Of a stretch of 64,000 bases of DNA, positions 4,965 to 46,510 are shown piece by piece. The position numbers were made by a program, and so were the translations under genes. The DNA is taken from the IMG/VR virus record IMGVR_UViG_3300025921_000002, positions 1-64,000 of that record, one strand, 5' to 3'. The notes beneath the pieces were generated by a model. The model ran no database searches. It saw nothing but the letters and a program-made list of their open reading frames with translations, and was not told the DNA's origin. Positions within the stretch are counted from its first letter, which is position 1. Every line of letters begins with the position of its first letter. This DNA comes from a virus.

Positions 4965-5300
4965 ATGTCGGTTGTATTCATTGTACCGACAGGACGTATG
5001 CTAAAGTCCGCACAAAAACAATAGTCGAAAGTCACGTTACAGCATAAATAGTCCCGCACTGACTTACAAGGTGTCAACGGGCGAACTGATGGGCACGACC
5101 GAGAGCTGTAAATGGTCAATCTAATAGGAGGTACGGGTTACCACCAAAGGGTATTGAAATAAGAAAACGACAAGTAGGCACGAATGGTGAAGGCAAAAAA
5201 TAAAAAAGTTATTTTGATTAAACCATTAAACTCATTGAAAGGAATAAGGTGTTCCCCACCCCTATCAGGAGTATAGACCTTGCTTTGACTAATGATTAAA
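4965..5300 (+). ncRNA. Putative structured leader or ncRNA
   Basis: ORF-free on +. Promoter TTTG(4932)-N20-TAAATTAG(4956). Hairpins tgtcggt/accgaca and ggac-gtatgctaaa-gtcc. Confidence 0.45.
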
Positions 5301-37027: not shown

Positions 37028-37468
37028 ATGAAACCGACTATATTTTCAGATGGTAGATTGTATGGGTTTACAAACGAACAAAGATTTAAAACTAAATTTG
37101 AAGTAAATGAAGAAACAGGATGTTGGGAGTGGAATGGTAGAATTAATAAAGGTGGCTACGGAAAGTTCACTTTTAATAACAAAGAATTAACGGCTCACAG
37201 AGTTTCATACATGCTACACAAAGGGGAAATACCTGATGGACTGCATGTATGCCATACCTGTGACGTAAGGCATTGCGTCAACCCAGATCATTTATGGTTG
37301 GGGACGAATGCTGATAATATGGCTGATAAAGTTAAAAAAGGGAGATTTGCAACAACCCATGGGACATACCAAATGTATTTTAGAAGAGGGTGTCGCTGTG
37401 AAATATGTGTAGATTGGTCAAGAAAAAGATATAGAAAAGGTGACCGGATTGACTCAAATAGAGAATAA
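37028..37468 (+). mobile_element. HNH homing endonuclease (probable start 37028)
   Basis: GCWEW.G....GYG.F......AHRVSY....G.IP.G..VCHTCD...CVNPDHL.LGT..DN..D. Confidence 0.93.
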
Positions 37469-38333
37469 CAGAATCATAATAGATTTAACCCAAGCGGCTT
37501 TATCTACCGGCTGGTCTGTTAATGGAAGCCAAGCTGACCATGTGCAGTGTAATGCCGGGGATATATTTTTGCTTGGCTACCCTCTTGTTGTAGGTCAATC
37601 CTACCGATATACCGTACAGGCAACAGTAAGTTCAGGCTATTTACAGGCTATGGGTGGCGTACAGCACACTACGGGAGGTTTTATTGAAGAAACTATTGTT
37701 GCCACAGGAACACAATTCTTTTTTTACGCTAACGGTAACTGCACGATACAAGACTTCGTTATTGAAGCATTTGCCCCGACTGTAAGCATTTATGAGCAAA
37801 GTACGGTAGCTTTTTCAGAAAGGTTGAATAAATGGACTTCATTCTACACCAAACGCCCTGAAAGCGCCTATTCGATGTATAAAAAGACTTATGAATGGCT
37901 TGAGGGTGATGTTTACCTTGTAGAAAGTGGGTCAAATGACAGGTGTAAGTTCTTTGGAGTACAATACCCTGCTACTATTTGGTTCTCTACAAATCAGCAA
38001 CCAACGCTTGCTAAGACGTTTATGTCTATTAATTACCAAGCAAGCCAATTGTTAATAACACCACCAAGCGGAGTTTATACATCGACAGGGCAATACTCGG
38101 AATTAATTGAGCAGGATTTCTTACAGGACACCTTAAACAACGGTGATAAGGTCTACTTTACGGAAGGCCTCGCACAGGCTTATTACATGAGGGCAATCCC
38201 AGATATGATAGAGGGGCAACAATTGAAAGGCAATTATCTTGAAATGGGTTTGCAGACCACATCGCCAAGTTCAATATTGACTTTATTTAGCACAGAAATA
38301 GGTTATGTGCATTCTTACCAAAATATAAGATAA
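37440..38333 (+). CDS. Tail muzzle/stabilization protein, C-terminal part
   Basis: TVAFSE..NKWTSFY...PE, FFGVQY...I.F..N.....K.F..I and G..LKGNYL are motifs normally found at the end of the single-gene muzzle protein. Confidence 0.7.
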
Positions 38334-38785: not shown

Positions 38786-39417
38786 CAGTTGCCGTAGCAG
38801 GCGCAACGTTAACATATAAAGTAGCTAAAGGTATTTCTGATAAGCACACCGCCAACCAGATTGATAAGGGCAATCCCTTTCCTACAGAAAACGTACAGCC
38901 CGAATATCAGGAAAACGTTAATCAGGCACAGCAAATGGCTCAAACTGGCCTACCCGAACAGCAATATAATAACCAGCTTAATAATATTCAACGAAACCAA
39001 GCGGGGGGCTTAATGGCTATTTCGCGCTCCGCTAACCCCGGTGCTAACGTAGCTTCTATATTAAGAACAGGCAACGACTCCACCAATACCCTGAACGCAC
39101 AGGACGCTATGATGCGTAACCGCAATCTTTTAAACCTTTTAAACCAAAGGATGCAACTGGCTCAACAAAAAGACAAGGCATGGGACTGGAATCATCAACA
39201 AAGATATTTACAGAACTTGGCCAAAGCCAACGCATACAGGAGCGCAGGTAATCAAAGCATCAATTCGGGGGTAAGCGAAGCCGCAGGAACAGTGACAGCC
39301 GCTAATGGCGCAGGAGCATTTTCAGGAGGAGGTGGTGGTATGGGTGGAGGCGGTTATTCAGGCGGATTTACAGATAGTTCCGCAGGTACAGGTCAACAAT
39401 TTGCATCCTACGCATAA
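38773..39417 (+). CDS. Internal virion/ejection protein (small)
   Basis: MSWVAVAVAG hydrophobic start, Gln/Asn-rich coiled coil and Gly-rich tail. Confidence 0.7.
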   Translation: MSWVAVAVAGATLTYKVAKGISDKHTANQIDKGNPFPTENVQPEYQENVNQAQQMAQTGLPEQQYNNQLNNIQRNQAGGLMAISRSANPGANVASILRTGNDSTNTLNAQDAMMRNRNLLNLLNQRMQLAQQKDKAWDWNHQQRYLQNLAKANAYRSAGNQSINSGVSEAAGTVTAANGAGAFSGGGGGMGGGGYSGGFTDSSAGTGQQFASYA

Positions 39418-40775
39418 TGGCAGAGATACAACCAAACTGGAACTCTTATTACAGCCCACAGGCTTACGATACCTTTAAAGGCAATCCCGGCCTCGACGAC
39501 CTTAATAAACGCTATGCCCAAATAGAAAAGGATAGGGAACTTGACAGACAGTTATTAGGTCAGCAAATCTCTAAAATGAACTTTGGTGGCGTTAAGCCTG
39601 CCGACGTGGGTGACCTGCAAAACCAGTACAACGATATTCTAAACGCCTATCAAAAGGCAAGGTCAATCACCGACCCTATGAAACGGGCGCAACTGACTAT
39701 GGAGTTGAGGCAGAAGATGAACGGTCTGCAATATAACGTGGAGAATAAAAAAGAGAACCACAGTCAGGAATTAAAGATGTTCGAGCAAATGAACCATCCT
39801 AATGCTTTCCCGGCTGACAACGCACAACAATTAGTAGGTGATGTGATAGGTACACCAACCGGAAGCCCCGAATATCAAACAAAATTAGAGGCTTTCAGAA
39901 ACGGTTGGCAGGATAAACCTGTTGACTTGGGAAAACTAACAACAACAGCCTTTACTAAAAACCTGACCAAAAGCACCAATTCAGGGCAAGAAATAAAAGA
40001 CCCCGCGACAGGACTTTTCAGGAATCAGATTATCAAAACCTCTGATGTTCCAAAAGCCGCTTACACCAACGAGATTGTAAACAGCGCATTAGGCGACAAA
40101 AGAACACTACATACCATAAGTAAGCTATACCCTGATTTGCCACCTGCACAAGCAGTTACACAATTTGCAAATGATAGTTATGAAGACCAAAAGCGTAAGT
40201 TGATAAGTGACACAACTTATAGCGCACCGCATATGAGTTATGACCAACATTTAGGCTTACAGGAAAATGCTGCAAGGCTTAAATCTAAATACCCATCGTT
40301 CGGTCAACAGCAAAACCTTACACCAATTTATAGGCAAAAATTAGTTGGTGATATGTTGAATGGTGTGCCGGGAAGTGGCGAAACTTTAGTCAATAAACTA
40401 AAAGCAGACCCATCCTATCAAAGACCTTTGGGTATTAAGGTAAATGGAGATAATATTCAATTTACAATACCCGATAAATTAAAAAATAAAATAGATAGTG
40501 ATGGAAAACCGTCGTGGCAGGTAGAAGTTCCTACACGGGTTGTTACAATTAATAAAAAAGACCCAAATGCAGATGTTCAGCTTAACGAATTAGTTAACCA
40601 ACTTACAGGCGAAAAAGTTGACATTTCCTCTTTAAGGACACAAGGCGGTAAAAAGCATGTTGCAGTTTCGGTTAGCAGTCAACCTGCAAAAGTAACCAGT
40701 CAAGACGAATACAATAAAGTACCTAAGGGCACTCAATACATAGCACCTGATGGTAAAATTTATATCAAAAAATAA
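39417..40775 (+). CDS. Internal virion/ejection protein (medium)
   Basis: Position; C-terminal EYNKVPKGTQYIAPDGKIYIK motif. Confidence 0.6.
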   Translation: MAEIQPNWNSYYSPQAYDTFKGNPGLDDLNKRYAQIEKDRELDRQLLGQQISKMNFGGVKPADVGDLQNQYNDILNAYQKARSITDPMKRAQLTMELRQKMNGLQYNVENKKENHSQELKMFEQMNHPNAFPADNAQQLVGDVIGTPTGSPEYQTKLEAFRNGWQDKPVDLGKLTTTAFTKNLTKSTNSGQEIKDPATGLFRNQIIKTSDVPKAAYTNEIVNSALGDKRTLHTISKLYPDLPPAQAVTQFANDSYEDQKRKLISDTTYSAPHMSYDQHLGLQENAARLKSKYPSFGQQQNLTPIYRQKLVGDMLNGVPGSGETLVNKLKADPSYQRPLGIKVNGDNIQFTIPDKLKNKIDSDGKPSWQVEVPTRVVTINKKDPNADVQLNELVNQLTGEKVDISSLRTQGGKKHVAVSVSSQPAKVTSQDEYNKVPKGTQYIAPDGKIYIKK

Positions 40776-43700
40776 TGGGACAATTTAGCTGGACTCCACC
40801 ATCAACTGATGAACCTGTAAAGAAAACAGGATGGACTCCACCTGCTTCTGATATTCCTGTCGTTGAAAAAAAAAGTCCAGTTGGCAACGCTTCTGTGGCT
40901 ACCTCAACGCAGTCTGGCGATGGCTCAAGTCCTTCCCCTCTCCAACAAAGTCTTACTAATGCTATGAAAGCGTATAGCATTACGCATACGCCAAAAGAAG
41001 TTAGTGATGTTCAAAACACAGTAAGCCAACAAAAACAAGAGGATAAAATAGCAAGAACCCCCGATGCTGTAGTTGCCCATGAGAAATACATGGAAACACC
41101 CTTAGGTAAAACACAGGGCGCTTTTCAATATGTTGGCTCTAAAGCCTCTAAAGGTGCTTTACAGATAGCTAAAGGCGCTACGTGGCTATATAATCATACT
41201 TCGGCCAATCCAATTCAGGGAATGATTGATGAAGTAAGTAATCAGCATAAAGGACAGGAAGATTTTTTCAACAAAGCAGATAAGGCAACTAACTTAGGTT
41301 TGACAGCTACCGACCTGCAAAACATTGAAAGCAATAAAGGTATAGGTGCTTCTGCCTTACGCACCGCAGGAACGTTCGCCGAGATAGCGCCAACAATATT
41401 AGGCGGCGAAGCATCTGGCGCACCAAAACTTGCCTTTGCATTACAGGGATTAGGACAGGGAAAAGAAACAATGGATGCAGTTGACCCCGACCATAAAGTT
41501 AACCCTGCAATAAGGGACGGCTTTATAGCCCTGAATGGCGCTTTTAATGCCGCTTTAATGGGTGACGCAGCAGAAACTAACTTTGCTAAAATGCCTGCCG
41601 CATTACGCGGTAAAATAAGTTCAGCTTTAGCTATGGACGCTATTAAGCAAAATGGCGAAAAAGAAATAACTGGTGAACTTGTTGACCATACCGTAAAAGA
41701 CTTTGCCCATAACTTTTATAAATTAGGCACAGACTATGTACAAAAGGTAGCCCGTACAGGCGTTGACCTTTCAGCATTGCAAGCAGCAACTGGCTTAGCT
41801 AAATATGGTGTAAATAAAGCAAGTGGGCAGGAGGTTTTTAAAAATCCCGCAGGAGAAACCGCAGAAGGGGTAAGCAACGCTGTTTTACAGCAAGCACCTG
41901 TTTTTGGTGCAGCAGGTACAGTAGGTGACCTTTCAAAGTTAACTCCTTATTCATCTTTTAAAAACGAGGTTTTTGAGAATATTGTTAAAGACCCAAGCCA
42001 AACAGATGCTATTAAACAGGAAATAGCACAACATGGTCAGGAAAGAGGATGGACACCGGAAGAAATTCAGGCCACTAACGACCATATTGACCAAATAAAA
42101 ACAGTAGCGCAAAGACTCCCTGAAACTATTAAACCTGAAAAAAAATCAGATGCAGTTCAATTAGTACTTGATCGGGATGCCCTAAAGAAACAACTGGCTA
42201 ATGAAGTTGGTAAAAGAGGCGCGATGGATGAGTCTGTTAAGGATTTGCCTAATGCTCACGAAGAATGGCTTACTGACAAGATTGAGCAAGCGAACGATAA
42301 GTTAAGGGCTATGGCTACGGGCAAGCGTACAACTTATTCTAAAGGCGTTGGCGACGAGGAAGGAAAGTTCTTCAAAACTACCAACGGCGAAAAGGAAGAA
42401 ATAACTGAAAATAGGTATAACTTAGAGAAGTTAGAACGCACAGCAAATGAAAATACTAATGAACAAGAAAAAATAAACAACAATGAAAAAATCAGCAACC
42501 AAAGCGAACAAGAAAGCGGTGTTCAGCAAACCGCCAGCGGGGAAAAAGTGGCAGAACAGCCCGGCAACCCCACCGAAAGCGTCCAAGCCATCGGCAACGG
42601 TAGTAGCGAAAATGAAGAAAGGCTGTTAACAACAGGGGGTGAACAGCCCCCTTTAAAAGCCATTAAAAACAAGGTTGATGAAAAAAATGCTCAAGACCCG
42701 GATTTTTCAGAAAAGAATTATGACGCATGGGAAGAGCACCGAATGGGTTTGGAAAAACAAATATTCCATGAGCCAATAGATGAAAATTTACCCATTAGTG
42801 AAAATATTAAACTTTTAAATAAATCATTAGAACCTGAATTTGAAAAAATAAAACAAGTTATAGGCGATGATGAAGTTGCTGATAAGTATATTTCAGCTAT
42901 CCAACGTAACCCAAAACGTGCTGAAAAAATAAGGAATGAATTACCAAAAGATGTTCAGGGTAAACTATTCAACCGAATAAATGAGGATGATTTTGAAGAT
43001 AATAAACAGCAAACTGACGAATTTGAACATCTTAATTCAGAAAGCGATAGGGATATAACAGACGAAATGAAATTTTCATGGATAGGGAAAAAAATAACCT
43101 CTCCATCCGACATGCAAAAGCCATTTAATCGAGTTATTGTGAAGGATTTAATTTCCCAATTGGCTGACAAGGGTTATTCGCAGGAAGAAATAGTCCGAAG
43201 GGCTATGCAAGACCGTGTTAGTCGGGGCGATAATGCCGAGCATGTAACTGAATTGGTTAAGGCTGTTTTGGAAGAACACGGTAAAAAATCTGAACCACAA
43301 CAAAAACAAATAGAAGGAGGTAAAAATGCCACTAAAACCGGGAACATCGAAGAAAACAATCAGCAGCAACATCAAGGAACTGTTGGACAGCAACAGGGGG
43401 TCGAAGAAAATCGGCAACACCAAGAAGAACCTGTCGCTAAAAGCCAAACAGAAACAGGCGGTAGCAATAGCATTGAGCAAGGCGGCCAAGTCAAAAAAAC
43501 AATCCTAACTAAACGAGCCTACGAAGGAGAGATACAGCTCGAAGTAAAAAAGCATCTTGAAGAAAAGGGGCTGACACGTAAGTCATTCTCACAAGAGGAA
43601 CGCTCTAAACAAGCTACCGACTTTATTAATAAGTTTGGTGAAGAAGCGGCACAAAAAGCAGTTGAAGCAGGAGATATAGACGGTGGTATGGCCGCATCTG

Positions 43701-45898
43701 TATTAGCACAACTAAAAATAAAAACCGATAAGGCAATGTCCGATTTCCCCGAAGGAAGTGAGGAACGCGATGCTTTGGCTAAAAAGCAAGCCGACATAAT
43801 AAACCTCATGGAAAAAAAGGGTTATTTAGGCGGTGAATTTAACGGGCAGTTAGCGCATGAATACCAAAACGCTGAATTAGACTTTGCCAATGTTAAAAGA
43901 CAAGTTGAGGACTTAACTAAAAAGCCACTTACCGCAGGTCAGGAAAAGAAGATCAAAGAAATTACTTCTGAAAACGAAAAGCTAAAAGCACAATTACAGG
44001 AAGCCGAAGCTAAGCTAATTGAAGAAACTGACAAGGCTTTTGAATCTGGCAAAGAAGCCGCTAAAACAGAAACCAACGCTGAAAAAGCAAAAAGAATAGC
44101 TCAAAAACTAAGAGATAATGCCAAGCTAAATAAACCGGGCATTTTTTCTGCGGCAACACCTGCATCTTTAATTTGGGACGGTGCTATTGAAGTAACAGCC
44201 AAAAGCATTGAAGCAGGCGGTAAACTGGCTGACGCTATTGAAGCAGGTATCAAACATATCAAAGCAAGCGATTGGTATAAAAACCTGCCTGCAAACAAGA
44301 AAGAACTTGCTGAAAAAGAGTTTAAACGTGTTAATTACGAACATTCAGGCAGTACCGATGTAGAGGACTTGCAGGAAAGGTTTGTTGACAAAACCGACAA
44401 TAAGTTCACCCCCAACGAGGCTAAAGACATTTGGGGCTACATGAAGAAAACCTATATTGAAAATGGCACTTCATATCGGGATGCCCTTTCAAAAACAGCC
44501 GAAGATTTAGGGCTTTCTTGGAGGCAAGTTAGCGAAGCCGTAACCACGCCAAAGGTCAAAAGAATGTCGGATGAAATGTGGAAACGTCAATCCGAATACA
44601 CCCGAAACAGAACCGCTATTAAGAATTGGATAGATACTCAAACAGCTAATCCTTTTATGAAAGCCCTTAGAAAGGTTTCAGGTGCTTTTAGGGGGTTGGC
44701 TGTATTTGGTCACGGTGGCATATTTGTTGGCACACACGCGGGTACGACAGTATTTAATCCGTCTATGTGGAATAAAACAATACCTGCTTTTTTTAGAGGT
44801 TGGAAGTTTGCCTACGGAAACGAGGGTAATTATCAGCGTTCAATGGAAGAATTAAAAAATTCTCCAAATTATCTTATTGCTCAAAGAGCGGGTTTGAAAA
44901 ATAATCCTGAAAGAATAAATACAGAGGAATATCAAAAATCTCAACAATATTTAGGCAGAGCAGGATTAGCCGGAGAAAGAGGATTTAATGCCATAAAAGT
45001 GCTTCGGCAGGACTTATTTGACTATCATTTCAATAAACTGTCACCTGCGGAAAGAGATGACCCGGAAGTAGCTAAGAGCATAGCTAAATTAGTTAATTTG
45101 GCTACAGGAGCGACTAACTTAAAAATACCATCATGGGTACAAGAAGTTTCATTTGCCGGGGGTATGGAGGGTTCAAGATGGGAAAAGTGGCTAAGAAGCC
45201 CCGCAGAGGCCGCAGATATTGCCATGAAAGCCATATTCACGCCTGACAAAGCAACTACCGAGGAGCGTATTTTTGCAAAAGTATGGGCAAGACGGGTTGG
45301 TGAGCAATTGGCCACATTCAGTGCGCTACTTTTAGCTAATTCTGCTATTCAAAATACTTTAAATCCTAAAAATCCTGTAAATTATACAAACCCCGATAAG
45401 CCGGACTTTATGAAATTTAAGTTTGGAGATAGGACTATTGACCCAACATCGGGCATGTTAGGTGTAGGAAAGTTTATATATAAAGTAGGTAAATTACCAT
45501 TCCAAAGCGAAAAAGAATTACATGGTGATAAAAAGATTGCCGCTTTAGGTAAGGATTTGCTTCAATACGGTAGAGGAAAACTTGCTCCATTTTATGGCAC
45601 GGTAGCCGATGTATTTACAGGAAGGGATTTTAACGGAAACCCGCTACCATATAGTAAGGAAAAACCGGGTAAAGGGCATCATAAATTAGGTTATGGAGAG
45701 TACGCTTTAAGTAAAGCCCCGTTGCCGGGAGCGGAAGCTGCAAATGTTACTTATAAATCAGCCGAAGAACATGGAGCGCATGTCCCTACATTGGATGATG
45801 TGATAAAAGGATTCTGGTCAGGGGCTATTTCAGGGGCAACAGGATTTAGGGTTGGCGAATACGATGCCAACTCCCCTGAAAATAAAAAGAAAAAATAA
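40775..45898 (+). CDS. Large internal virion/ejection protein (1707 aa)
   Basis: Size, Ala/Gly-rich then helical composition, position after the smaller ejection genes. Confidence 0.7.
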   Translation: MGQFSWTPPSTDEPVKKTGWTPPASDIPVVEKKSPVGNASVATSTQSGDGSSPSPLQQSLTNAMKAYSITHTPKEVSDVQNTVSQQKQEDKIARTPDAVVAHEKYMETPLGKTQGAFQYVGSKASKGALQIAKGATWLYNHTSANPIQGMIDEVSNQHKGQEDFFNKADKATNLGLTATDLQNIESNKGIGASALRTAGTFAEIAPTILGGEASGAPKLAFALQGLGQGKETMDAVDPDHKVNPAIRDGFIALNGAFNAALMGDAAETNFAKMPAALRGKISSALAMDAIKQNGEKEITGELVDHTVKDFAHNFYKLGTDYVQKVARTGVDLSALQAATGLAKYGVNKASGQEVFKNPAGETAEGVSNAVLQQAPVFGAAGTVGDLSKLTPYSSFKNEVFENIVKDPSQTDAIKQEIAQHGQERGWTPEEIQATNDHIDQIKTVAQRLPETIKPEKKSDAVQLVLDRDALKKQLANEVGKRGAMDESVKDLPNAHEEWLTDKIEQANDKLRAMATGKRTTYSKGVGDEEGKFFKTTNGEKEEITENRYNLEKLERTANENTNEQEKINNNEKISNQSEQESGVQQTASGEKVAEQPGNPTESVQAIGNGSSENEERLLTTGGEQPPLKAIKNKVDEKNAQDPDFSEKNYDAWEEHRMGLEKQIFHEPIDENLPISENIKLLNKSLEPEFEKIKQVIGDDEVADKYISAIQRNPKRAEKIRNELPKDVQGKLFNRINEDDFEDNKQQTDEFEHLNSESDRDITDEMKFSWIGKKITSPSDMQKPFNRVIVKDLISQLADKGYSQEEIVRRAMQDRVSRGDNAEHVTELVKAVLEEHGKKSEPQQKQIEGGKNATKTGNIEENNQQQHQGTVGQQQGVEENRQHQEEPVAKSQTETGGSNSIEQGGQVKKTILTKRAYEGEIQLEVKKHLEEKGLTRKSFSQEERSKQATDFINKFGEEAAQKAVEAGDIDGGMAASVLAQLKIKTDKAMSDFPEGSEERDALAKKQADIINLMEKKGYLGGEFNGQLAHEYQNAELDFANVKRQVEDLTKKPLTAGQEKKIKEITSENEKLKAQLQEAEAKLIEETDKAFESGKEAAKTETNAEKAKRIAQKLRDNAKLNKPGIFSAATPASLIWDGAIEVTAKSIEAGGKLADAIEAGIKHIKASDWYKNLPANKKELAEKEFKRVNYEHSGSTDVEDLQERFVDKTDNKFTPNEAKDIWGYMKKTYIENGTSYRDALSKTAEDLGLSWRQVSEAVTTPKVKRMSDEMWKRQSEYTRNRTAIKNWIDTQTANPFMKALRKVSGAFRGLAVFGHGGIFVGTHAGTTVFNPSMWNKTIPAFFRGWKFAYGNEGNYQRSMEELKNSPNYLIAQRAGLKNNPERINTEEYQKSQQYLGRAGLAGERGFNAIKVLRQDLFDYHFNKLSPAERDDPEVAKSIAKLVNLATGATNLKIPSWVQEVSFAGGMEGSRWEKWLRSPAEAADIAMKAIFTPDKATTEERIFAKVWARRVGEQLATFSALLLANSAIQNTLNPKNPVNYTNPDKPDFMKFKFGDRTIDPTSGMLGVGKFIYKVGKLPFQSEKELHGDKKIAALGKDLLQYGRGKLAPFYGTVADVFTGRDFNGNPLPYSKEKPGKGHHKLGYGEYALSKAPLPGAEAANVTYKSAEEHGAHVPTLDDVIKGFWSGAISGATGFRVGEYDANSPENKKKK
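42483..42629 (+). CDS. Nested +1-frame 48-aa Lys-rich protein
   Basis: MKKSATKANKKAVFSKPPAGKKWQNSPATPPKASKPSATVVAKMKKGC, preceded by the A-rich leader aataaacaaca. Confidence 0.5.
   Translation: MKKSATKANKKAVFSKPPAGKKWQNSPATPPKASKPSATVVAKMKKGC
43326..43508 (+). CDS. Nested +1-frame 60-aa Lys-rich protein (MPLK.G.S.KTIS.NI.E...QKQAVAIALS.A family)
   Basis: Recognisable small phage protein pattern; GAAGGAGG-TAAAA-ATG upstream. Confidence 0.75.
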   Translation: MPLKPGTSKKTISSNIKELLDSNRGSKKIGNTKKNLSLKAKQKQAVAIALSKAAKSKKQS

Positions 45899-46417
45899 TT
45901 AACACTTTCTATTTTTTCTATATTCAGCATTTCTCGCTAATACCATTTCTCTATTATTTTGGTAATATTCAGCTTGTTTTCGCTTATTACTTTCGGCATT
46001 ATTTAATCGCCACTGTTTTTGATATTCCCTTTCTAATTCTACGCAGCCGTCGCACCTGCATCCATTTCTAAACATGCTTCTTGATGGACATTGCGCCGTT
46101 GGCAATCTTCCTTTGTTCTGTGCATCATTTATATTTTCTTTATTTGTGCCTATCCACAAATGAAATGGGCTAACGCATTTTCTATTATCACATCTATGGC
46201 AAACAAACATTCCTTCTGGAATTTCTCCAATATAAAATTGATAAGAAAATCTATGTGCAAGTATTCTTTCTTGTTTTATCTTAAAATTACCATAGCCGCT
46301 TACATTTAATGGAGATTGCCATTCCCAGCATTGCGTTTCTGGATTTATAAGATATTTTTTTGTAAATCTTTCTATTGGGGATACCGCTAAATAATCCTTT
46401 CTCCCAAGTCCAGCCAT
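45899..46417 (-). mobile_element. HNH homing endonuclease (probable start 46417)
   Basis: CWEW......GYG.F......AHRFSY....GEIP.G..VCHRCDN..CV.P.HL..GT..EN..D, plus a C-terminal GCRCDGC shared with the 37028 HNH. Confidence 0.93.
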
Positions 46418-46426
46418 AGTAATAAA

Positions 46427-46510
46427 AAGTCCTGTTCCGGGTTCAAGCGATTGCGCCACTCTCCCCCAAAACAGGACTCTAAATATCTTTATTCGGAGCG
46501 CAATTCCGAT
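46427..46510 (-). ncRNA. HNH-leader pseudoknot RNA, copy 3
   Basis: CGGA-ATTGCGC-TCCG ... GGGGGAGA-gtg-GCGCAAT-cgc-TTGAACCC, downstream of TACCTTCG (46526-46519). Confidence 0.7.

Follow-up and report, generated by a model that had tools for sequence, protein, structure and literature searches.

A 60-residue member of a widespread phage protein family lies in the +1 frame of a giant phage gene and is probably translated from its own start

The window studied here (64,000 nucleotides (nt), positions 1 to 64,000 of IMG/VR virus record IMGVR_UViG_3300025921_000002) is a section of a 74,996-bp virus record rated complete by CheckV, has a G+C content of 40% and comes from a phage of rhizosphere soil. 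Contained entirely within the giant gene that encodes a protein of 1707 amino acids (aa; P0002) is a 183-nt open reading frame (ORF), on the same strand and in another frame, for a 60-aa protein (P0001) that belongs to a phage family most of whose copies are stand-alone genes. The locus thus raises the question of whether the embedded ORF is a working gene and, if it is, how one stretch of DNA came to serve two proteins. We consider it likely that ribosomes start at the ATG of the 183-nt ORF, which would make it a functional gene, and that the same mRNA is also read through in the -1 frame to give the 1707-aa protein. The features concerned are these:

40775..45898, plus strand: host ORF, 1707 aa, with more than 140 relatives of 1000-2900 aa that are of polyvalent type
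40775..42655, plus strand: host residues 1-627, N-terminal region that some members of the host family share
42656..43489, plus strand: host residues 628-905, variable, polar, low-complexity linker, with the embedded gene lying over its last 55 codons
43311..43313, plus strand: TAG in the frame of the small gene, five codons 5' of its ATG
43313..43320, plus strand: Shine-Dalgarno (SD)-like motif GAAGGAGG, with a 5-nt spacer to the embedded ATG; the host frame reads E-G-G there
43326..43508, plus strand: embedded gene, ATG at 43326, TAA at 43506-43508, 60 aa, +1 frame of the host ORF, with a family match and an AlphaFold2 fold
43490..45898, plus strand: host residues 906-1707, conserved C-terminal module, beginning VKKTILTKRAYEGE

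The small ORF, which overlaps host residues 851-911, lies in the +1 frame relative to the host frame because 2551 mod 3 = 1, and its product has exactly the sequence that the initial annotation had given for a 60-aa peptide inside the giant gene. Its open frame has 64 codons, and the TAG at 43311-43313 rules out a long N-terminal extension as well as entry by frameshifting from far upstream. A contig from an independent DNA run spans 43129-44054 and has zero differences from the window, and the frame structure is therefore not an assembly slip.

On the strength of its motif pattern, said to occur as a stand-alone gene in many phages, the initial annotation had assigned the peptide to a known family of small phage proteins, and the homology searches that had been proposed for it did find such stand-alone homologues. 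P0001 matches the phrog_2423 profile (E 1.8e-10) in two stretches (profile positions 1-24 and onward) that cover the N-terminal and C-terminal motifs, and it carries every invariant column of family alignments of 15 and of 86 sequences. Among called proteins 14 close homologues of 46-72 aa share the motif MPLKxGxSxKTISxNI...QAVAIAL, the nearest being P0003 (79% identical) and P0004 (71%). In an exhaustive HMMER search the family had 7,401 cluster representatives at E<=1e-3, of which 2,638 remained at E<=1e-10, and a pattern scan located more than 437 family loci in viral contigs and 105 in metagenomes. With a typical family member as the query, tblastn matched 144 cultured-phage records, which include Acinetobacter, phiCbK-like Caulobacter, Pseudomonas, Burkholderia and Ralstonia RSB1 phages as well as cyanophages; against cultured phages, tblastn with P0001 itself and megablast with the host gene gave no match. 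P0001 has no Pfam match even at E<=1 and does not reach the threshold of DUF6496 (PF20106). This domain is touched by four of 15 relatives (best E 9.5e-5) and by 17% of the members of a neighbouring Atlas cluster, so that the phrog_2423 family and DUF6496 appear to be related distantly only; a literature search on DUF6496 found no paper that mentions it.

The host frame was examined across the same stretch. In stand-alone copies of the small gene, the frame that corresponds to the host frame holds a mean of 5.3 stops (119 distinct copies), and it is free of stops in 12 of the 119, nested copies included. When P0001 was recoded synonymously with the codon usage of the phage, the host frame stayed open in 38 of 20,000 trials (~0.2%), and the third codon positions of the small ORF hold no T, against 30% genome-wide. 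These figures indicate that the host frame is selected to remain open.

One could still suppose three genes here, an N-terminal part, the small gene and a C-terminal part, with the open host frame across the small gene being an accident. Such an arrangement would agree with the situation in most phages, where the small gene lies between separate genes, and with the low complexity and poor conservation of the host frame over the overlap. We consider it very improbable, since an openness expected by chance at about 0.2% recurs in eight loci, and since residue 906, the first of the C module, already lies within the overlap. The embedded gene has its stop codon in the I-L-T codons of this module, and from residue 840 to residue 971 the host frame offers none of the start codons ATG, GTG and TTG, so that the C module can be made by read-through only. 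Furthermore, relatives that lack the small gene keep the same N-terminal, linker and C-terminal architecture as one ORF, and the independent DNA contig confirms the sequence.

Nesting of the small gene is not limited to the window. Six further nested copies (L008, L016, L027, L059, L082 and L094) were found among 160 fetched family loci, and a seventh, L163, carries a short form of the small gene, which gives a nested set of eight copies. The hosts reach 2586 aa in L008, 2535 aa in L027 and 1942 aa in L059, and the copy nearest to that of the window, L082, is 67% identical to it. All nested copies are in the +1 frame and none is in +2. In all 28 pairs of nested copies the identity in the small frame (0.40-0.78) is higher than in the host frame (0.21-0.57), in 24 of the 28 the differences peak at third positions of the small frame, and all eight copies have retained their ATG, an uninterrupted ORF and the motifs of the family. 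This pattern argues that the small frame carries protein-level constraint and that the host frame there is a stop-free polar linker; residues 851-911 of P0002 are 79% polar or disorder-promoting. That both frames are coding is, on these comparisons, probable, and given the recurrence in seven other contigs both are probably translated.

The embedded ATG is also preceded by an unusual signal. The initial annotation had described an SD-like motif 5 nt upstream as rare in this genome, and indeed the GAAGGAGG octamer occurs as a single copy in the 64-kb window, both strands counted, and an SD-like core of at least 4 nt lies upstream of only 3 of 40 long window genes. Across the nested set an SD-like 4-mer at -18 to -4 precedes six of the eight ATGs, against 5-17% at random positions of the same host ORFs, and in L163 a strong SD-like motif, AAAGGAGA, stands at 1184-1191 before the nested ATG. 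The initiation region in the window is A-rich (top 5%) and weakly folded (-3.3 vs a mean of -6.75 kcal/mol, top 16%). Since the relatives of P0002 come from Bacteroidota metagenome-assembled genomes, and SD cores are found in 3 of 40 genes, the bacterial host probably does not rely on SD sequences for translation initiation. In such an apparently SD-independent host group, the strong SD-like motifs of the window and L163 hint at a distinct mode or timing of initiation.

An alternative way into the small frame would be a programmed frameshift from the giant frame, producing a truncated giant protein with a basic tail. Recoding elsewhere in the giant gene had been suspected in the initial annotation. 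We regard a frameshift as exceedingly improbable, as the TAG five codons 5' of the ATG leaves 12 nt, in which there is no slippery heptamer, as nearly all members of the family carry the module at the N-terminus, and as the ATG is kept in every nested copy.

Several points weigh against translation of the small ORF from its own start as a functional gene. The case is one of sequence comparison, and the contigs from RNA libraries leave 43305-43865 uncovered, which makes them uninformative either way on the small ORF. The nested copies are few (eight in total, 6 of 160 fetched family loci, about 4 carriers among 119 members of the host family), and some, such as L008 and L016, are related to each other. 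Two nested copies, L082 and L094, have no SD-like motif, and with SD usage at 3 of 40 genes GAAGGAGG may not be a classical ribosome-binding site. The invariance of 'MPL' is partly one of ascertainment, as that motif was used in the search patterns and the regular expression. As regards function, a fold search with the AlphaFold2 model against the PDB gave no match at E<=0.001. Some of these points would suit a relic, that is, a once separate small gene swallowed by the fusion of its flanking genes, whose +1 frame is untranslated and has so far not decayed. The two copies without SD-like motifs agree with it, as do the plausibility of a fusion or read-through origin for the layout and the dispensability of the small gene in a near relative. 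Nevertheless a relic seems improbable to us, because eight copies that have diverged to 40-78% identity keep the ATG, the open frame and the family motifs, because in every pair conservation is higher in the small frame, because a +1 frame of the host peptide would be open by chance in just 4.7% of cases, and because SD-like motifs are enriched before the nested ATGs.

If the small ORF is a translated gene, the nature of the protein in which it is nested becomes of interest. The N-terminal region of P0002 (residues 1-627) is 61% identical to that of P0017 and 44% identical to those of P0023 and P0028, and the C-terminal 600 residues are conserved in more than 140 giant proteins of 1000-2900 aa. 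In some of these relatives the variable parts carry ART-PolyVal, Kinase-PolyVal, LPD3, ddrB-ParB, His_Phos_1 or GNAT domains, and the polyvalent Pfam identifiers found among some of them are PF18760, PF18762, PF18763, PF18798 and PF18823. Because the variable parts of some relatives carry polyvalent domains, we regard the host genes as probably of the polyvalent type that Iyer, Burroughs, Anand, de Souza and Aravind (2017; PMC5512222) described in phages and conjugative elements. The giant gene had earlier been named an ejection gene and was thought to couple the synthesis of capsid-internal components, but this had been drawn from gene position alone, and the domains of the relatives are those of polyvalent proteins. 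P0002 itself has no Pfam domain (PF07704, at E 0.031, fell under the cut-off and was disregarded), Pfam searches with 28 host relatives gave nothing useful, a MuF domain was matched in neither P0002, 27 relatives nor five other host ORFs, and a profile of the host family had no match in the PDB. Among the other nesting hosts, Pfam identified LPD38 in L008 and L027 (~1e-33) and GNAT in L059. The C module (906-1707) has the invariant motifs GHGGIFVGTH and GFNAIKVLRQD and no relative in Pfam, PHROG or the PDB, and it is a large uncharacterised domain of polyvalent-type proteins of Bacteroidota phages.

How the small gene came to lie in such a protein is suggested by the setting of its stand-alone relatives. 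Their typical upstream neighbour is a portal gene of ~790 aa; in cyanophages KBS-S-2A and MED4-184 the copy follows a 'head morphogenesis' gene that is itself 3' of the portal gene, and in Burkholderia phage BCSR129 it follows a minor-capsid gene and a Nudix gene. The window copy, by contrast, is within a giant gene downstream of tail-fibre-like genes, and the portal gene of the window was not recognised. In 24 stand-alone copies the long ORF upstream overlaps the small gene by 11-26 nt and in the same +1 relation, and in 17 of these 24 the overlap is exactly 11 nt, the upstream stop being the T|AA formed by Leu3 (CTT) and Lys4 (AAR) of the small gene. Twelve further stand-alone copies have a 1-nt overlap, in the +2 relation. 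L150, with a 104-nt overlap, was tried as an intermediate form and rejected, since the frame that overlaps there is a spurious ORF, and the 793-aa gene next to it stops short of the small gene.

We propose that the ancestral layout would have been this commonest one, with the upstream head gene ending 11 nt into the small gene. Loss of that stop and the purging of about five more would have allowed the upstream gene to be read on past this point; Leu3 of the window copy is CTA, and the host frame consequently reads A-T-K and continues. The resulting dual-coding segment would then have persisted in, or moved between, giant polyvalent-type genes. In P0002 the host frame over these 61 codons links the variable middle of the giant protein with the conserved module at its C-terminus. 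Nesting in +2 is never seen, which is accounted for if +1 embedding is the read-through form of the commonest overlapped layout.

Whether the segment became nested once or several times can be asked from the tree of the family. Nested copies cluster on it (5 changes vs 7.9 in shuffles, beyond any of 500 shuffles), and in the approximately unbiased (AU) test a single clade of nested copies was not rejected (p 0.355). Nesting may have arisen once, with later transfer of the segment as a dual-coding cassette, or several times independently. The hosts of L008, L016, L027, L059, L082 and L094 have no BLAST similarity to P0002 outside the overlap, and BLAST among the host ORFs, their N-terminal parts and the upstream ORFs of ~450 aa gave nothing beyond the overlap except between L008 and L027 (E 0.003). 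Similarity of this kind thus gives no support for positional orthology of these loci. In L163, on the other hand, the host protein P0018 shares 76% identity with P0002 across the C-terminal module. P0018 also has, at residues 887-947, an extra copy of a segment like residues 1102-1162 of P0002; it sits between the nested small gene and the conserved C module and represents an internal duplication in the variable region.

These data bear on a further alternative, in which the small gene is expressed and its stop-free dual-coding segment was recombined into the variable linker as a mobile cassette, in line with the module shuffling of such genes, and is functionally unlinked to the giant protein. 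The distribution in the host family is sporadic, as would be expected of such a cassette: the carriers among about 119 members are the window, L163 and probably P0036 and P0052 (the last two judged from host-frame signatures). Of 14 host-family loci that were fetched 12 have no nested gene and one more was too truncated to tell, a scan of genome contigs found two host-family loci, both without it, and a 98%-complete near relative, G001, has no copy of the small gene anywhere. Homologous hosts moreover carry different subtypes, the long form in the window and the short form in L163, the clustering on the tree and the AU result agree with transfer, and polyvalent loci have been proposed to take up cassettes by recombination (PMC5512222). 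An unlinked cassette would nevertheless leave the existence of the layout unexplained, and the family is consistently found beside portal, MuF-like and cargo genes, which speaks for a functional link with that apparatus. We therefore regard it as possible but rather unlikely. It agrees with a gene translated from its own start inside the giant frame in all but the origin of the layout in the lineage of the window and the functional linkage.

A related question is why the small gene would have been overprinted and not simply fused in frame. P0001 opens with ATG-CCA-CTA (M-P-L). In most of the best 150 representatives of the 7,401-representative search the family module starts at residue 1, the exceptions being mostly short proteins that look like over-extended start calls, and in longer fused forms (140-580 aa) it is N-terminal, starting at residue 1 or 14 in 10 of 10 tested. 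Such near-constant placement at residue 1 suggests that the MPLKxGxS module needs a free N-terminus, which may explain overprinting in place of in-frame fusion.

What the protein does can be suggested from its composition and its neighbours. P0001 has a predicted isoelectric point (pI) of 10.8, 16 K+R and 2 D+E, no Cys, no aromatic residues and no hydrophobic stretch. The AlphaFold2 model, made with 86 sequences, is a two-helix hairpin with helices at 9-22 and 38-59 and a mean predicted local distance difference test score (pLDDT) of 87, and its structural neighbours in BFVD are uncharacterised family members from Ralstonia phage RSB1 and Burkholderia phages BcepF1, BcepNY3 and BCSR52. Tentatively, we suggest a small basic helical protein with a free N-terminus that works with the portal, head-morphogenesis or cargo apparatus, that is probably packaged and binds nucleic acid, and that is accessory and not essential, since the 98%-complete near relative has no copy. 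A more specific and still less likely suggestion is that the MPLK protein might be a dedicated partner of capsid-delivered cargo (a pilot, an adaptor or a factor that binds DNA ends), presenting a free N-terminal Pro after removal of Met, with its gene as a portable dual-coding cassette and the strong SD motif giving it separate translational control in hosts that otherwise disregard such motifs. If so, the cassette could sit in and move between giant polyvalent genes, one frame providing the partner and the other a linker.

The second helix was noted to resemble another known element, as positions 28-43 of the family profile A3 (KQAVAIALSKAGKS) are similar to the QVVAIAS-GGKQ core of transcription activator-like effector (TALE) repeats (PDB 4hpz). 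Kinship of KQAVAIALSKAGK with TALE proteins was rejected, as the PDB profile E value of 2e-5 is the sum of nine repeats, each insignificant. With no repeat significant alone, the likeness is treated as motif resemblance only and may be a coincidence of a helix-loop motif.

Like the other members of phrog_2423, P0001 has the MPLKxGxS...SxNI...QAVAIAL motifs, the size class, the basic charge and the predicted two-helix fold of the family. Nearly all of those members, however, are stand-alone or form the N-terminal module of proteins of 140-580 aa, and lie beside portal or head-morphogenesis genes, whereas the gene for P0001 has no intergenic space at all and is entirely within another coding sequence. 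A comparable arrangement is that of the lambda-type Rz/Rz1 spanins, in which a small gene is embedded in the +1 frame of a larger one and the pair is also found separated or overlapped across phages. Like Rz1, the gene for P0001 is fully embedded in +1, and its family shows separated, 1-nt, 11-26-nt and embedded forms. Unlike the spanin pair, it stands in a head or cargo context and not in a lysis cassette, its product has no signal peptide, lipobox or Cys, and the embedded partner is the ancient and widely conserved one while the embedding frame is young. An identity of P0001 as an o-spanin of the Rz1 kind was ruled out by the absence of a Cys, a lipobox and a hydrophobic stretch from its 60 residues.

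The same reversal sets the locus apart from classical viral overprinting, as reviewed for phiX174 genes and the MS2 lysis gene (PMC8227390). There too one DNA stretch is read in two frames, of which one gives a disordered, low-complexity product and the other a constrained one. In the classical cases a new gene is born inside an old one, whereas here the old gene is inside and a neighbouring frame would have been extended across it as a new linker. Compared with polyvalent proteins, the hosts of the nested copies are likewise giant and multi-module, and the P0002 family has a variable middle and conserved ends, but a module in another frame with its own start is absent from the architectures described in PMC5512222. 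The terms 'overlapping' and 'frameshift' are absent from the text of that paper, and its one passage on a 'reading frame' concerns separate small ORFs near a polyvalent locus.

The finding also flags a blind spot of gene calling, as pipelines usually discard embedded genes. That gene callers would miss this ORF had been foreseen, and the exact sequence of P0001 is in fact absent from a collection of 15 billion proteins that holds P0002. Five of the eight nested proteins have no exact entry in that collection, and the other three derive from contigs of 1-8 kb. Stand-alone copies can be passed over as well: in Prochlorococcus phage MED4-184 (L180, NC_020847.1) a family member at 5001-5111 is in an annotation gap after the head-morphogenesis gene and a 63-aa ORF, and likewise cyanophage MED4-117 has a stand-alone member with no GenBank feature under the match.

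Embedded genes are known in phages, but few. The present one would show an ancient and widespread small gene (thousands of clusters) surviving inside giant polyvalent-type genes in eight contigs, with the direction of overprinting reversed, the linker of the giant gene having been laid over the old gene. The mechanistic route would be a simple one, as one synonymous change at Leu3 removes the stop of the upstream gene, and an uncharacterised family is tied to the portal, MuF-like and cargo apparatus. Because each frame can be disrupted by a mutation that leaves the other product unaltered, clean genetics should be possible at this locus.

It had further been suggested that the giant gene is a four-product locus that yields, besides the giant protein and the 60-aa peptide, a frameshift peptide and another basic peptide. 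Beyond the 60-aa gene we found no support for this. The 48-aa basic ORF in the +1 frame at 42483-42629 (plus strand) has no PHROG family at E<=0.1 and so far has no comparative support.

The neighbourhood of the giant gene contains some further features, the first of which directly precedes it:

39417..40775, plus strand: upstream ORF, 452 aa, whose stop overlaps the host ATG (ATGA)
45899..46459, minus strand: 186-aa ORF on the opposite strand, abutting the stop of the giant gene with zero spacer
37440..38333, plus strand: weak, sub-threshold match to the C-terminal domain of a crAss-like muzzle protein, PF25729 (E 6e-4, 20.5 bits; cut-off 27)

An ORF of similar size (420-490 aa) also precedes the giant ORF in L082, L027 and L059, and the upstream ORFs of the window and these three loci have no mutual sequence similarity. 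The PF25729 match hints at a distant crAss-like tail architecture. Sequence of the phage was recovered from three rhizosphere DNA runs, which contain most or all of the searched stretch 42300-44500, one of them (run X3) covering all of 40500-46100. Two rhizosphere metatranscriptome runs contain short fragments of the giant gene that are 100% identical to the window, for example 42467-42698 and 43999-44433, and RNA of the phage may thus be present in both of these libraries.

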